Shown here piece after piece: positions 1 through 5,103 of a stretch of 8,958 bases of DNA. The stretch comes from a virus (taxonomy: Duplodnaviria > Heunggongvirae > Uroviricota > Caudoviricetes). Positions within the stretch are counted from its first letter, which is position 1, and the number at the start of each line of letters is the position of its first letter. The DNA lies in the IMG/VR virus record IMGVR_UViG_2703718848_000007; one strand, given 5' to 3'. The notes under the pieces are model-generated. The model made no database searches. It saw nothing but the letters and a program-made list of their open reading frames with translations, and was not told the DNA's origin. Made by a program: the position numbers and the translations under genes.

Positions 1-20
1 CCCGCCTCGCCCGCCCGCTT
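1..20. other. partial cos site (cohesive-end sequence runs off the left edge of the window)
   Basis: Reverse complement of 1-11 is GGCGAGGCGGG, the first 11 nt of the P2/P4 19-nt cohesive end GGCGAGGCGGGGAAAGCAC as I recall it. Position next to the variable region downstream of A fits P2 architecture. Confidence 0.45.
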
Positions 21-136
21 CATGGGTCGATTTCAATGCAGTTGCATGAGTCCATTAAAAGCACATCAGTACTGGCAAAATAAAGATGCAGAAATTAATC
101 CTTGAAGATGCAAAAAAATGCAACGCAACGCACCTC

Positions 137-835
137 TTACGGCTTCGTCAATACAGACTTAAATTTATCATTAAATGGCTTAATTTGAGGTAATGTTAAT
201 TTTTTTACAAATGTTTTTGTCGTTGTGTGAACTACGACGCTACCTTCTCCAAGAGTATTCCCCTGACATTCTTTTACGAACCCCTCATCAGTTACTGATG
301 CGGTAATGCTCTCTGGAATTATAAGCGTCAATATATCACCATAGTCTTCTAAAACATGCGGTAACTTACCATCTATAAGCTTATGCGGGTTTACATAAAT
401 ATCTAAGGATTTATTGTTAGAAAATCGCAACCTCACCGACTGAATGTTACTCCTAACTTGTCTTTTGTTTGTTATAGTTATTGATATCGCTGTATTTTTG
501 ATACTCGGCAAGTGCAATGATGGAATTAACACCATACTATATCGAATGTCAATCTCCTCTGAATTTTCCTTTGCCGAACGGAGTGCTAACAACAATGATA
601 TCGCAGCAGCAGAAAATGCTCCCAACCCAGAAACCCAAGTACCCAACATAGTTAAAAAAGGTATTGTAATTGATTGGAATTTAGTGTCCCCATTCAAACC
701 AACACCACTATAGCCCACATAACACCCTATAAAAAAGAATAGACAAGCCGTTATTAAAACAAAAAATAAATGAATAGAGCTTATCCTTTTAAATTTCAAC
801 AAAAAATCTTTCAAAATAATTTTACATCTCTTCAT
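137..835 (-). CDS. two-helix membrane protein with about 145-aa C-terminal domain predicted cytoplasmic; unknown family (cargo gene 2)
   Basis: 232-codon ORF in clearly AT-rich DNA. AGGA lies 7 nt upstream of the ATG at 835. Translation has a strongly basic N-terminus (MKRCKIILKDFLLKFKR), two hydrophobic helices (IHLFFVLITACLFFFIGCYVGY and ITIPFLTMLGTWVSGLGAFSAAAISLLLAL) and a beta-rich soluble C-terminal domain. No family recognised by eye. Confidence 0.7.
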   Translation of the reverse strand: MKRCKIILKDFLLKFKRISSIHLFFVLITACLFFFIGCYVGYSGVGLNGDTKFQSITIPFLTMLGTWVSGLGAFSAAAISLLLALRSAKENSEEIDIRYSMVLIPSLHLPSIKNTAISITITNKRQVRSNIQSVRLRFSNNKSLDIYVNPHKLIDGKLPHVLEDYGDILTLIIPESITASVTDEGFVKECQGNTLGEGSVVVHTTTKTFVKKLTLPQIKPFNDKFKSVLTKP

Positions 836-933: not shown

Positions 934-1665
934 TCACTCACTTATAATTGATACAACCTCACCTGTTTCTACATTGACACGCGCAGCAATCGTCTGTTTC
1001 ACCACTCCGCCATAAGCATTAGTTCCGCGAAACGTGGTTTTCACAATGGCATGCGGGTCTTTATTCAAAACCAGATGATATACCGTTGACACATGTTTAT
1101 AAGATGAATCATCGTTCATATTATCTTTAATTAGTTTTTCCAAAGGACGATAAGAACCATCCCAACCACTAAAATTACTCTGAAATGTATCAAGATTGAT
1201 TTTATTGTTTAGTGAATTCGGGTCATTTTCATAATCATTAAAGCACCACCCAAGAACATCACCGAGTTTCAACTCATCATCTTTGGTAAATGTATACTCA
1301 CTCATGCAGGCATAAAACGCATCTGACGCGGTGGCTGGAACTTCCTTAAAATCAATGTAACTATTCACAATATCGTGTCGTGTTTTCTTTGACTCGTTCC
1401 GATATTCCTTGAGTGTTTTTTCACCATATTCGAATGTTTTTTGGACTTTGTGTTCTGCAACGGTTGATGTTTCAGTTTTAGCAACTGGCTGGCTTTTTTC
1501 TGTTGGATAGAGTATTGAACCAATTATGCCCAATACAAAACCTCCTCCGAGATAAACCGCACTTGCACGTTTGCGGCTTGGCATTCGCACCAGTGATGGT
1601 TTGATTAACCCGATGAAAAAAGCAACGAAAAAAGCGAGTGATAGAAAAGCGATTACAGTATCCAT
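934..1665 (-). CDS. two-helix membrane protein with about 190-aa C-terminal domain predicted periplasmic; unknown family (cargo gene 1)
   Basis: The ORF track extends to 1689, but that codon is GTG. The in-frame ATG at 1665 has AAGGAT about 5 nt upstream, so 243 aa is preferred. Helices TVIAFLSLAFFVAFFIGLI and VYLGGGFVLGIIGSILY are separated by a basic loop KPSLVRMPSRKRASA (positive-inside rule puts the loop in the cytoplasm). The C-terminal domain has two Cys (FYACMSEY, LGWCFNDY). DNA is AT-rich. Confidence 0.7.
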   Translation of the reverse strand: MDTVIAFLSLAFFVAFFIGLIKPSLVRMPSRKRASAVYLGGGFVLGIIGSILYPTEKSQPVAKTETSTVAEHKVQKTFEYGEKTLKEYRNESKKTRHDIVNSYIDFKEVPATASDAFYACMSEYTFTKDDELKLGDVLGWCFNDYENDPNSLNNKINLDTFQSNFSGWDGSYRPLEKLIKDNMNDDSSYKHVSTVYHLVLNKDPHAIVKTTFRGTNAYGGVVKQTIAARVNVETGEVVSIISE

Positions 1666-1686
1666 AGCTATCCTTTTTGCATCATC

Positions 1687-1715
1687 CACATAAAAAATCG
1701 ACCTTATGTTAGCAA
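1687..1715 (-). promoter_or_regulatory. tentative sigma70-type promoter for cargo gene 1
   Basis: On the minus strand TTGCTA (plus 1710-1715), a 17-nt spacer, then TATGTG (plus 1687-1692), about 20 nt upstream of the ATG at 1665. Weak -10, by-eye call only. Confidence 0.25.
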
Positions 1716-1746
1716 CAGGAAGCTTACTTTTGAATATTTGTAAGTT

Positions 1747-1771
1747 GTTAGCTTGAGCTCTCCGAGCTAAC
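1747..1771. repeat. inverted repeat GTTAGCT / AGCTAAC around a GAGCTC-containing loop, at the AT-rich to GC-rich transition
   Basis: Read directly: 7-bp arms at 1747-1753 and 1765-1771 with an 11-nt loop; no U-tract on either side. Confidence 0.5.
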
Positions 1772-1851
1772 TCCTTTCAACCGTCAAAAAACAGCACCAT
1801 CACAGTAAAAATATGAATGTCAACTAACGCCTCGCTTCGCTCGTTGTTCAA

Positions 1852-1890
1852 CGCCGCCAGCCCTGAAAACAAGTTTCACGACTGGCGGCG
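1852..1890. repeat. 39-bp imperfect palindrome (about 17-bp arms, 2 mismatches)
   Basis: Left arm CGCCGCCAGCCCTGAAA pairs with right arm TTTCACGACTGGCGGCG; central loop ACAAG. Lies in the spacer between cargo gene 1 and the small gene downstream of A. Confidence 0.5.
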
Positions 1891-2100
1891 TTCTCTATCG
1901 TCTGCGTGGTGGTGGCGTAACTCTGGATTGACTGATATGGTTAAACCGCCCGTAATTATCCCGGACTATTTCGGCACACCCGACCAGCTCATCGGGCGTC
2001 AGATTTTCGTTGACCATAATCCGCTGTAAACGCTGAACAATAGCCATCAGCTTGATATTTTTAGTTTTATGGTGCGGTATCTCACTTGGCATTCTGTGCA

Positions 2101-2556
2101 TTATCCAAGCCACCCGTTTTGCTGTGCACGCCCCATCTGTTCATCTGAATAGTGCCATGCTCCATCCGTGGCAACCATTGCCCCGCCAGACATCCCCGTC
2201 TCTGGTTCATACATAACAGCAAGGCCGAGTTGATGCATAATTTCATGATTAATTCTGAATACCAGACCACGCTCACTAAGTTCTTTCCAGTTCACAATCT
2301 CATATGCGCCTGTATTAAGCCGCTCAATACTTAGCAAGACATAATCTTCCAGCCAGTCTGACAGGTCAGTAACATCTGTTATCCGGGCTTCAACCTTTCG
2401 CCCCGTATACACACCCTGCACCCATTCATGCAAAATCAACGTGTCCCCGCGCTCATAATTACGGTCATTTTTCCGAAACTCTGCGCGTTTCTTTCCTTCC
2501 AGCACAAGGTCGAAATATTTTGCGTGCAGCTTTACCTCGTGAATTTTTGCCATCAT
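2101..2556 (-). CDS. small protein with N-terminal ASCH/PUA-like (DUF3850-type) domain and a C-terminal segment carrying an HExxH motif
   Basis: Start ATG at 2556 overlaps the A stop codon (ATGA, plus 2553-2556), with GGAG 6-7 nt upstream. N-terminus KIHEVKLHAKYFDLVLEGKKRAEFRKNDRNYERGD matches the pattern I associate with DUF3850. C-terminal part contains NHEIMHQLG. The ORF track start at 2589 would overlap A by 37 nt and is less likely. Confidence 0.6.
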   Translation of the reverse strand: MMAKIHEVKLHAKYFDLVLEGKKRAEFRKNDRNYERGDTLILHEWVQGVYTGRKVEARITDVTDLSDWLEDYVLLSIERLNTGAYEIVNWKELSERGLVFRINHEIMHQLGLAVMYEPETGMSGGAMVATDGAWHYSDEQMGRAQQNGWLG

Positions 2557-4838
2557 GTCCACTCCATTACTGTTGAAAATCCCGGCCATTCATCAGCGAC
2601 CGGATACGTGAATTTTTTCCCGTCATAATTTACGGTTGCCCCACGCGCCAGCGCCTCAATCTCCCATCGCTGAGGCCTGATACCGTTCTGAGCAAGGTCA
2701 ACGCGGATACGGGTAATTTGCATTCGTTCCGGCCGGGTCAGTCTGGCCGATGGCGCTATTTCATGTGGTTTTAACGGGCTTCCGTTTCTTTGCTGGCGAT
2801 TTGGTCTTCTCAGTCCGTGTTTTAATGCTCCCCTGAGCGCCCTCACAACCTCCGGGTCATTCCATTCGATAACACCGTCATCTACCAGATTAAGCACTGC
2901 TGCGGCGTGTTCAGAAGGTGTGGGAGCCGGTAACGAAGCATCACCACCGGTGAGTTTTCCACAGTTATTGACAGGACTCCGAGGCGCGGCGATGCCGCTT
3001 TTTAAAGTCAAAGGCTCAACGACCGGAACTTTCGGCACAATGCGCCAATCCGTGGTTCTGGTGATATGAATATGACGCGCGCCGAGATGCGGTGCGTAAA
3101 TGCCGACCACTCTCTCGACTTCTTCCTCGTACTCGTTAACGTCATCCGACGGGCTACGGGCGACTCTGACAGTCTGACAATCGCGCGGAACATTTGCCCC
3201 ACCCTGCGCGCTGATATACAACGCAAAATCACCACTGTCTGCGGCGGCGCGTGCAGCCTCGACGCGCTCGTCAAACTCATCAGCAATGCTGACGCCGCGC
3301 GGCAATTTGCGTAGTTCACGGTAAGCCCCCATTGTCGGCAGGCCAACCGTTTTAAATTGCGGGATGCGCCACGTTGACGCCCATGCGGTAACAGCCGCTG
3401 CAGTGTCTTTCAGCGGCCTGCCGGTGTCGTTATCGAGCTGACCATCCAGTGCATAGCCGTCGATGTTTTTTGAAATGTATTTCGCGATATATCCCGCAGC
3501 ACCGCCCCGGTTAAGGTGTTTTGCCTGAAAACGGTTTCGCGCAGCTCCTCTTTCGTCTCCATCCTCTTTGAGCGCGTAGCGACGCATGATTTCGATAATC
3601 TGGTTACGCTGGCGTGGATTACAAAAAAGCATCATATGCCAGTGCGGCGTTCCGTCGTGGTGTGGCTCGACGACACGCAAACCGTAGACCTGTAAATCAT
3701 TATCCTTGAATGCCGTGCGCATCAGGCTCCAGATGCGGCAGAGATAACGCTGCGCATCCTTTGGATTAAATGCCTCATCGTTCCAGCCGTGATTAAGCTG
3801 AACGGTTTTACTTTCGCCTTTTCTGACCTGACGTGTCGGGTGATACTTTGACGGCGCGGTCAGCGTGATAAACATCCCCACATCACCCTCTGCGGCGGCG
3901 TAACGCTCAATACCGGCAATGGTGTTCATCAGCTCCATCCGGCGAATTTCAGGATTAGAAATACTGCCCATCACCTTACTGATAAGGTCGATGCGCTCGC
4001 CGGTTTCCCTGTTTTCGAGGTCACACGATTTAAGAAATTCCAGATTTGCCTGGCGGCGCGCACGCACATCACGAATGGCATGTTTACTGGCATAAGGAGA
4101 ACGGTCTTTATTGACCTCCCCGACAGCAATCAGTAACGCCTCATGCCAGCGCATACGCTGGCCTTTAAGCTGATGAGTCCACCACTCATCGTTAAACAGG
4201 CGGGCAATGGCAGAATATGCCTGCCTCGTGGTCATCTGCCCTTTACGGTATTTTTTCCAGTAAAGCGGGGAAATATTGAAAGCACGTGCAGCGCCAGCAA
4301 CATGACCATAGAGGTGAGCCTGCGCCTCATCCGTAAACAGCGATTCTTTTTCGCCATGTGCATCAACCCAGGCATCGCAGAGTTCCTCATACATCATGAA
4401 AAGCTGCGATGAGATACGGGCAGCAAACTTTTTCAGCTCCTTGTCATTCATCCCCGGCAGGCGCGCATACTGGTCGCGCTCTGCCAGAAACAGCAACGAC
4501 GCGTCGGTGTTCATTTCATGGCGCTGATTCACACGCTCAATGCGCGGCCATAAACGACGCTGAAAAGTGGATGTGAGGAAATAAAACCCGTGCACCGGGC
4601 TTTTATTGCGCCGGATGTAGTCATAGCGTGAAGTAAACAGCGAGCGCAAAAAGTAAGGCAGACGGTTAATCGTGGATAAAACCCCTTGCACCTGACGCAT
4701 CTCGTCACGTGTAAGGGGTCTTTCGCGCCCGACAGCCTCGCGTGGCGCGTTCCATGCATAAGCACCGGTAAACGCCTTACCGGTGCCTGCGGCAAATGCT
4801 GACGGAGGGACAAAACGCCCGGAGGCTTTAACGGCCAT
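2553..4838 (-). CDS. A: rolling-circle replication initiator (HUH endonuclease), phage P2 gpA family
   Basis: Translation contains the HUH-type motif PHWHMMLF and the paired-tyrosine motif GYIAKYISK. Starting at the in-frame ATG at 4838 gives 761 aa, matching the P2 gpA length as I recall it; the codon at 4880 used by the ORF track is TTG. Confidence 0.9.
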   Translation of the reverse strand: MAVKASGRFVPPSAFAAGTGKAFTGAYAWNAPREAVGRERPLTRDEMRQVQGVLSTINRLPYFLRSLFTSRYDYIRRNKSPVHGFYFLTSTFQRRLWPRIERVNQRHEMNTDASLLFLAERDQYARLPGMNDKELKKFAARISSQLFMMYEELCDAWVDAHGEKESLFTDEAQAHLYGHVAGAARAFNISPLYWKKYRKGQMTTRQAYSAIARLFNDEWWTHQLKGQRMRWHEALLIAVGEVNKDRSPYASKHAIRDVRARRQANLEFLKSCDLENRETGERIDLISKVMGSISNPEIRRMELMNTIAGIERYAAAEGDVGMFITLTAPSKYHPTRQVRKGESKTVQLNHGWNDEAFNPKDAQRYLCRIWSLMRTAFKDNDLQVYGLRVVEPHHDGTPHWHMMLFCNPRQRNQIIEIMRRYALKEDGDERGAARNRFQAKHLNRGGAAGYIAKYISKNIDGYALDGQLDNDTGRPLKDTAAAVTAWASTWRIPQFKTVGLPTMGAYRELRKLPRGVSIADEFDERVEAARAAADSGDFALYISAQGGANVPRDCQTVRVARSPSDDVNEYEEEVERVVGIYAPHLGARHIHITRTTDWRIVPKVPVVEPLTLKSGIAAPRSPVNNCGKLTGGDASLPAPTPSEHAAAVLNLVDDGVIEWNDPEVVRALRGALKHGLRRPNRQQRNGSPLKPHEIAPSARLTRPERMQITRIRVDLAQNGIRPQRWEIEALARGATVNYDGKKFTYPVADEWPGFSTVMEWT

Positions 4839-5103
4839 ATGAGCCAAAAGCCTCTGAACAACGCCTGCTGAGTTGCTCAACCTGCGCGTTTAAATCAGCA
4901 AAAGACTTTGCGCTTCCGGTCAGAATATCGTGATGCATCAGGCCGGAAACGAGCTGGCTTAATTTCGGATAATAACCAACCACCGCCAGCCATTCCTGAC
5001 CGGCGTTTTTACCGCTTTCCGCTCTCTTTTTCTCGTGGAGAATAAACTGAAAGCTGTCACTGGTAACGACATAACGTTCGCCAATTTCAATACGAATACT
5101 CAT
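4828..5103 (-). CDS. P2 orf83-like early protein, function unknown
   Basis: 91-aa ORF; its ATG overlaps the stop of the upstream gene (ATGA at 5100-5103) and its end overlaps the A start by 11 nt. Position immediately upstream of A as in P2. Confidence 0.7.
   Translation of the reverse strand: MSIRIEIGERYVVTSDSFQFILHEKKRAESGKNAGQEWLAVVGYYPKLSQLVSGLMHHDILTGSAKSFADLNAQVEQLSRRCSEAFGSYGR

Follow-up and report, generated by a model that had tools for sequence, protein, structure and literature searches.

Among the systems described so far, a close parallel to the element that is the subject of this report is provided by the promoter-early stem-loops (PeSLs) of the T4-type phages, which are mobile regulatory cassettes (Arbiol et al. 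2010, PMC2839356; Comeau et al. 2014, PMC4122927). PeSLs are short, conserved intergenic stem-loop motifs that border the variable genes of a hyperplastic region; the indels and replacements that distinguish close relatives start and stop at the motif, and it has been proposed to serve as portable homology for modular shuffling. A second precedent is the variable-gene locus that extends from gpA to cos/gpQ in P2, a defence hotspot also called the "TO region", for which 1,650 gene arrangements were counted in 18,150 E. coli loci and which is a major anti-phage reservoir (PMC9122126); according to the latest survey, it is unclear how the systems in this locus swap so fast without leaving pseudogenes (PMC13586616, NAR 2026). 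The current report examines one such locus in a window of 8,958 nucleotides (the whole stretch of DNA that was analysed, from IMG/VR virus record IMGVR_UViG_2703718848_000007), in which a 69-nt stem-loop with a conserved tail, designated here as element E, lies between conserved phage backbone and variable cargo. E is a junction module of the cos-near accessory region in the Peduoviridae, found before every first cargo cassette and often between cassettes as well.

The window represents the right end of a P2-like (Peduovirus) prophage and carries gene A, orf91, the cargo genes and cos in this order, all on the minus strand, with integrase and repressor genes further to the right. In its gene order, its homology breaks and the variable genes between A and cos, including an exclusion gene of the Orf97 type, it is the gpA-gpQ hotspot of P2. 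Work on the P2 TO region is reportedly to be found in Nilsson et al. 2004 and Odegrip et al. 2006. E can be described as a conserved junction module with a stem-loop, located in a hyperplastic region of phages that is itself a known hotspot; the two recent systematic papers (PMC9122126, PMC13586616) delimit this hotspot by its flanking genes and not by a boundary stem-loop, and the words "hairpin", "inverted repeat" and "terminator" occur 0 times in either of them, although a prior description (Nilsson 2004) is possible. Our comparisons drew on 61 IMG/VR loci fetched via orf91, 8 loci of other species fetched via ORF68 and several annotated phages. The ~435 bp that the initial annotation had taken for a spacer without convincing genes consist of three parts, namely the small gene ORF68, element E and the leader of a cargo gene. 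The layout of E is as follows:

1824-1892 (read from 1892 to 1824), minus strand: element E, 69 nt, a 19-bp stem-loop followed by a 26-nt tail that ends in GTTAG.
1850..1892, minus strand: stem-loop of E, beginning 2 nt past the TAG stop codon of ORF68.
1824..1849, minus strand: conserved 26-nt tail of E, GAACAACGAGCGAAGCGAGGCGTTAG, with cargo DNA from the next base onward.

The arms of the stem (1850-1868 and 1874-1892) are 19 nt each, are complementary at 17 of 19 positions and enclose a loop of 5 nt. As RNA of the minus strand the stem-loop folds with -38.8 kcal/mol (z = -4.96), which none of 200 shuffled sequences matched, and the large palindrome noticed in the initial annotation is therefore real; RNA of the plus strand reaches -27.1 kcal/mol, so that the sense RNA is ~12 kcal/mol more stable. 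Covariation was computed on 35 distinct variants of E (alignment A2). Eight of the 19 stem pairs have changed on both sides, in 29 cells of the alignment, and 89.3% of the stem cells are paired, as compared with 52.6% at most when the 3' partners are slid; the observed score was reached by 0 of 500 shuffles. The apical part of the stem-loop (UGAAAC-UUG-UUUUCA) hardly varies, and the same holds for much of the tail. A second helix that RNAalifold placed in the tail was not accepted, since none of its pairs has changed on both sides. E matches no Rfam family (best E-values 0.76 and 4.6, far below the gathering scores), and the small RNA that had been considered for this region finds no counterpart there either. 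In four loci of the set (L025, L052, L054 and L055; ~3657-3729) a variant E is missing ~20 nt of the apical stem-loop (AACGCAGCCAGCTCAGGATTGGCGGGGG...) and has a tail that ends in ATTAG; this type of variant shows that E can be remodelled.

Both ends of E are fixed to the nucleotide. At the downstream edge, among 27 distinct contexts, the last three bases have a mean pairwise identity of 1.0, which drops to 0.26-0.30 from position +1, and at the upstream edge, among 9 distinct contexts, identity rises from 0.31 at position -1 to 1.0 at the first base of the stem. Because identity across contexts collapses where E ends, the cargo boundary is placed by these alignments at 1823/1824, directly after GTTAG. 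The same GTTAG junction occurs in Escherichia, Enterobacter, Scandinavium and Trabulsiella. In loci with other cargo, homology to the window mostly ends at 1822-1824, with a few loci in which it ends at 1805, 1843, 1858, 1882, 1929, 1703 or 2324-2333; in loci that share the first cargo gene and differ in the second, it ends at 943-976. An alignment of P2-like loci with different cargo, which the initial annotation had proposed as a check, bears out the idea of a boundary and moves it: the composition does change (G+C content of 0.37 at 1601-1800 and of 0.525 at 1801-2000), but conservation in most loci breaks at 1822-1824, ~70 nt to the right of the expected position near 1750. The same annotation would have been refuted if the region were an unremarkable, conserved part of P2 unrelated to cargo boundaries, and half of this applies: conserved backbone is indeed what 1824-2101 is, yet it ends exactly at the cargo boundary.

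Further copies of E were sought by profile and covariance-model searches. Seven P2-like loci have the arrangement ORF68-E-orf97-E-next gene. In phage 186 an E lies 8 nt past the orf97 stop codon, PSP3 has the order tumB-E-gp37-E-gp38, SW9 has DinI-E-gp43-E, and ORF68 has an E on both sides (E-ORF68-E) in Escherichia sp. E1V33 and Enterobacter chuandaensis, as in loci L069 and L070. Every copy is in sense orientation and lies 0-16 nt past a stop codon, and copies inside one locus differ from each other by ~10%, with compensatory changes in the stem. Identical cargo is found with an identical junction behind the E of Peduovirus-type and of Eganvirus-type backbones, as in the following groups:

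L078 with gp38 of PSP3.
L009 with L069 and L072.
L042 with P2-EC67 and L070.

In E. coli there are 534 places with an E in 511 of 5426 genomes, at most 2 per genome, and the contexts that were sampled are all P2-like prophages. Among 50,697 phage records E is limited to Peduoviridae, with Escherichia, Yersinia, Salmonella, Klebsiella and Erwinia as their hosts, and the whole genomes of W-phi and 186 contain one copy each. The Z/fun hotspot yielded no E, only a non-significant 12-bit match without the matching fold. Canonical P2 has neither ORF68 nor E, its orf91 having tin and old of the opposite strand as immediate neighbors, and because P2 does without it E is dispensable for phage growth, replication and packaging.

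In regard to the PeSLs, then, E shares the property that replacements start and end at the element, in 27 downstream and 9 upstream contexts, and that its copies flank cassettes. It differs from them in that it has no demonstrable promoter, is found once or twice per genome where PeSLs number dozens, carries a 26-nt tail that is conserved and is confined to a single cos-adjacent locus in temperate Peduoviridae.

The interpretation that we favor, in which our confidence is about evenly balanced with our doubt, is that E is a junction module that gives portable homology for the exchange of cassettes and that also forms an RNA hairpin. In this view, the homology common to the genomes would end with the 69 bases of E, beyond which the DNA is variable. 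In combination with the conserved region at cos, or with another E, these bases might allow homologous recombination between co-resident genomes of the P2 and 186 types to swap, delete or stack cassettes, and recombination between two direct copies of E would free a circle, composed of a cassette and one E, that could re-enter any other E. Exact junctions would be reproduced in this way without a dedicated enzyme, as has been proposed for the PeSLs of T4-type phages (PMC2839356, PMC4122927). As to RNA, E would form the 3' end of the transcript of the upstream unit and fold as a hairpin that could serve as a 3' barrier, a stabiliser or a weak insulator, as distinct from a canonical intrinsic terminator.

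Several observations weigh against this interpretation. Most loci have a single E. Sequence conservation in the apical stem-loop and in the tail goes beyond what the structure asks for, and this suggests recognition by a sequence-specific protein, which homology-driven exchange does not require. Homologous recombination might account for the reuse of junctions, but not for the initial, exact joining of ~27 unrelated DNAs after GTTAG. No site in the cargo leader passed a promoter scan. We infer the transcription of E and its role as RNA from the strand asymmetry and the position past stop codons, and the wobble pairs of the stem, which favor the gene-sense strand (59 G.U cells versus 7 A.C cells), include 28 G.U cells of one pair that were probably inherited.

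Since the exact first joining and the conservation of loop and tail are left unexplained by homology, a site-specific mechanism is kept alive, in which E would be a recombination or insertion site (similar to attC/attI or in the form of a folded hairpin) where a dedicated or hijacked recombinase or HUH nuclease joins cassettes exactly 3' of GTTAG. We consider this to be unlikely. That a proposal of this kind exists for the locus is suggested by the title of Nilsson et al. 2004, a paper cited in PMC9122126. Both ends of E are knife-edged against ~27 unrelated downstream and 9 upstream contexts, and an invariant apical loop and tail would be expected of a site recognized by protein. There is also a likeness to the attC sites of integrons, whose core consensus is GTTRRRY: E is an imperfect palindrome just past the stop codon of a cassette gene, it marks exact cassette junctions, and its stem starts with AAC and ends in GTTGAAC, which fits this core. 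The bases upstream of the stem among the variants are AGAGAAC, GACAAAC or TTAACAAAC, and GTTGAAC or GTTAAAC stands at the end of the stem in most of them. The junction, however, is 26 nt further on, after GTTAG and not at G/TT, and the conserved tail extends past the GTT where an integron crossover would fall. The inverse core RYYYAAC is absent, and the stem, although mismatched, has no bulges and no extrahelical bases. Unlike attC sites, the copies of E are 75-100% identical, being conserved in sequence as well as structure, and they form arrays of 2 units at most. No candidate enzyme is at hand: the window encodes no recombinase other than the prophage integrase, the integrases in it and in annotated relatives are all of the phage type, with no integron integrase (IntI) among them, and E is common to phages with different integrases and attachment sites (P2-like phages, W-phi, 186 and PSP3). 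A narrower proposal, that E serves as attachment site for a cassette system peculiar to the P2/186 phages, with a phage or host enzyme that inserts and excises defence cassettes after GTTAG near cos, likewise has a rather small chance of being correct. If it were true, the best-studied prophage defence hotspot would have an integron-like, site-specific mechanism.

Two further recombination or processing signals were considered for E. The Chi sequence is GCTGGTGG; the 3' arm of the E stem reads GCTGGCGG, one base off Chi, and with 0 of the 35 variants identical to Chi this candidate was rejected. The sequence GCGCCTCGGAGTCCTGTCAA inside gene A, at window positions ~2967-2990 (minus strand), is presumably the nick region of the P2 origin of replication (ori), the P2 and 186 records placing ori at the equivalent position, and no likeness between it and the tail of E could be seen by eye.

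A scenario that we find more doubtful still would reduce E to a transcriptional or RNA 3'-end element of the early operon (a terminator without U-tract, an insulator or an RNase target), with selection on genome size trimming the remnants of cargo to its edge. It draws on the position of E, 0-16 nt past stop codons and in sense orientation, on the greater stability (~12 kcal/mol) of the sense RNA, and on the cos side of the cargo, where the border is likewise fairly sharp and falls at a functional site. Trimming, however, should leave remnants of varied length, whereas the 27 contexts diverge at one base; mutually diverged copies of E flank internal cassettes; and canonical P2 does without the element. 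E does resemble a Rho-independent terminator, such as t95a or t95b of phage 186, in that its stem-loop is GC-rich and directly follows the final gene of an operon, but it lacks a U-tract. The stem is followed by GAACAACGAG, the tail is kept as non-U sequence in the 35 variants, and a scan of 1500-2300 found 0 intrinsic terminators and no U-tract after either of the two palindromes of the region, as the initial annotation had said. The GenBank record of phage 186 (U32222) annotates nothing at E and assigns the terminator of the p95 transcript, t95b, to a classical hairpin with T7 located 24 nt beyond E. In loci of the S164 type the next gene begins 2-27 nt past E, and these genes would therefore be transcribed through it. 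The lack of a U-tract and the downstream t95b of 186 argue that E is not a canonical intrinsic terminator, and the earlier suspicion that the large palindrome is no such terminator and sits at a recombination junction of the cargo is in agreement with our results. E would not be simply a promoter cassette either, given the convergent genes that follow it in some genomes (a gene ends 3 nt past E in P2-EC67 and ~70 nt past E in EC93); its tail starts with a -35-like TTGAAC, with no -10.

The view from which the analysis set out, that of a long non-coding spacer which holds a cargo promoter, a small RNA or scars of gene replacement and has its boundary at a 7-bp repeat near 1750, was partly right in spirit and wrong in anatomy, and as a whole it is improbable. 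For 1824-2101 it is refuted. The strictly non-coding stretch amounts to 229 nt (1666-1894), and half of the supposed spacer is coding. The features to the right of E that bear on this view are the following:

1895..2101, minus strand: ORF68, 68 amino acids, a conserved gene of the PSP3 gp37 / SW9 gp43 family and the last gene of the early operon.
2101..2556, minus strand: orf91 homologue with DUF3850/ASCH and DUF7415 domains, the early operon's last large gene.
2553-4880, minus strand: replication gene A.

The evidence that 1895-2101 is a real, conserved gene comes from comparison of its product and reading frame. In E. coli H10 the corresponding position holds a PGAP coding sequence (WP_000554772.1) that overlaps the DUF3850 gene by 1 base, and homologues are found in 178 protein clusters of Escherichia, Salmonella, Citrobacter, Klebsiella and Buttiauxella. 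Residues 1-67 match phrog_11386 (3.5e-39), and the similarity to the PSP3 gp37 family is full-length. The frame is open in 39 of 39 ungapped loci, in which nucleotide substitutions have left the core unaltered; aligning 18 diverse members showed this core (M19-Y50) as nearly invariant, the first 18 residues as semi-conserved and the C-terminal tail as variable in length, usually with PPPRR(R/P) at its end. The stop codon of orf91 (2103-2101) and the ATG of ORF68 (2101-2099) form a TAATG junction, a one-base overlap of the kind typical of translational coupling. PSP3 gp37 and SW9 gp43, which translate to members of the ORF68 family, are not fused to orf91, have upstream regions of their own and still begin with MHRLPGE, and the ATG at 2101 is for this reason the likely start. 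The 50-residue open reading frame that had been proposed from the ATG at 2047 is an internal piece, the C-terminal two thirds of ORF68. An AlphaFold2 model of ORF68 is a two-helix hairpin (pLDDT 79) for which Foldseek found 0 matches in the PDB; searches of Pfam and PADLOC with ORF68 gave no match, and its sequence matches in the PDB have E-values of 0.38 or more.

A plus-strand open reading frame at 1817-2029 was rejected as a gene, with a start that lies in cargo-specific DNA and a frame that stop codons cut to 15 residues or fewer in most loci. It has a PHROG of its own because some annotators called it, and simple synonymous/non-synonymous counts did not separate it from the ORF68 frame. 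N-terminally truncated calls of ORF68 with 50/51 residues (P0090 and P0097; H67) bear the NCBI name "meiotically up-regulated 80 protein", which is a fission-yeast name and almost certainly a naming artefact. In Eganvirus (186-type) backbones ORF68 is a cassette between two copies of E, placed after the DinI/TumB gene, whereas in P2-type backbones it is joined to orf91 on its 5' side. Copies of E in such ORF68 cassettes have the following coordinates in their own loci:

L070: 2810-2891.
L069: 2803-2883.
PSP3 (L082): 2090-2171 and 2495-2576.
SW9 (L080): 2995-3076 and 3400-3481.

The orf91 homologue matches PF12961 (8e-18) and PF24187 (2e-14), and relatives have a DUF3850 protein annotated at this place. 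In W-phi (L002 3662-4177; AY135739 28508-29023), orf91 seems to have been broken by small indels, insertions of 5 nt and of 1 nt when compared with the window, into gp91 as its DUF3850 half and gp92 as its DUF7415 half, and the W-phi record leaves the real ORF68 and E unannotated.

To the left of E, in the cargo itself, the spacer view retains some ground. The features here are:

1666..1823, minus strand: leader of the orf97-like cargo gene, 158 nt, present only in loci with an orf97-like gene.
934..1665, minus strand: cargo gene 1, homologue of Orf97 of phage 186, with an N-terminal transmembrane helix (phrog_3403).
137..835, minus strand: cargo gene 2, 232 amino acids (phrog_23429 and phrog_16957, both without assigned function).

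The leader is non-coding and specific to the cargo, and ~1690-1775 shares homology with the end of tum in 186 and with the tum-orf97 intergenic region, with a degenerate t95a hairpin and T-run at ~1695-1720. By this homology the orf97 cassette was taken from a 186-type SOS operon, of which a scar remains, and a gene-replacement scar next to the cargo had in fact been among the initial suggestions. A LexA box, to be expected if the SOS control of 186 had been retained, was rejected (CTGT-N8-TGTT without an ACAG half-site). A perfect TTGACA (1818-1823) opens the 46 nt that adjoin E, a stretch unique to the orf97 cassette; the best -10 for the cargo, TG-n-GATGGT at a spacing of 16 nt, is weak, and weaker still in relatives. 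A putative cargo promoter in the leader is plausible from the -35 hexamer, but it lacks a convincing -10. The 7-bp repeat is present where it had been reported (GTTAGCT at 1747-1753 and AGCTAAC at 1765-1771) and, among loci of the orf97 type, its arms are kept around a loop of 11 or 5 nt, compatible with a small hairpin or an operator. It lies inside the cargo-specific leader, however, and it is at chance level, since by our estimate ~2 perfect 7-bp inverted repeats within 60 nt are expected per 600 nt; the fold of the leader is not significant (z = -1.19, with 24 of 200 shuffles folding as well). As a mark of the boundary, it has to be given up.

The cargo genes are both AT-rich. A Shine-Dalgarno sequence, AGGA, precedes the ATG of cargo gene 1 at 1665, which is the start rather than the GTG at 1689. 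Its product is similar to 186 Orf97 over the full length (79% identity over 241 amino acids, E-value 3e-150), and the 186 record notes for orf97 that "expression from plasmid blocks 186 infection"; no PADLOC model matches it, and it may be an uncatalogued exclusion or defence gene. Cargo gene 2, also without a PADLOC match, has been swapped independently of gene 1, with homology breaks (943-976) inside the last codons of the latter. Between the two cargo genes, at 893-922, there is a terminator-like hairpin of the plus strand (TGCCAGCATAAATACTGGCA plus TTTTTATTAT), the sole terminator match in 1-1000, which occupies the position of the second E copy in S164-type loci.

On its other side the cargo is bordered by a conserved region as well:

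1..122, minus strand: cos-proximal conserved region, right border of the hotspot, containing ATGCAACTGCAT, a palindrome at ~63-77 and TTGCAT motifs.

Its architecture in 40 distinct loci, including 186 and PSP3, is TTGCATGC ... CGCCAG-NN-CTGGCGCG ... TCATGCAACTGCATT, with conserved spots in the window at ~36-49, ~63-77 and ~113-121, and the phage records end at this region. The cos palindrome is of the type CGCCAG-NN-CTGGCG and lies ~30 nt from ATGCAACTGCAT; the window has a degenerate copy (GCCAGTACTGATGTG). The base of the E stem (CGCCAGTGCTG / CAGTGCTGGCG) is similar to this palindrome, so that related palindromes stand at both borders of the cargo. It is this resemblance that lends some support to a role of E as DNA, either as a hairpin for lagging-strand priming in rolling-circle replication or as an auxiliary terminase site related to the cos palindrome, and G.T mismatches are tolerated in a hairpin of single-stranded DNA too. 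We nevertheless regard such a role as very improbable, given that canonical P2 replicates and packages its genome without E, that the distance between E and cos varies from ~0.2 to >3 kb and that some phages have two copies. The idea of a small non-autonomous mobile repeat inserted after different genes, similar to a miniature inverted-repeat transposable element or to the REP/ERIC sequences with which E shares its palindromic form and its transcribed, intergenic position past stop codons, can be given hardly any credence, in that this discrete unit with unrelated flanks on both sides is not dispersed over the chromosome but limited to the A-to-cos region of Peduoviridae, in one orientation and at 2 places per E. 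coli genome at most, and shows no target duplication or terminal repeats.

At the level of annotation, our results correct the many phage records that leave ORF68 unannotated or that call a gene on the wrong strand, and E could be used as a precise landmark for the computational delimitation of cargo. For the biology of the P2-like phages and their relatives, E represents a concrete and testable candidate for the mechanism by which cassettes are swapped in the hotspot, one that is conserved from the P2-like phages of Escherichia to 186, PSP3 and the phages of Erwinia and Klebsiella.

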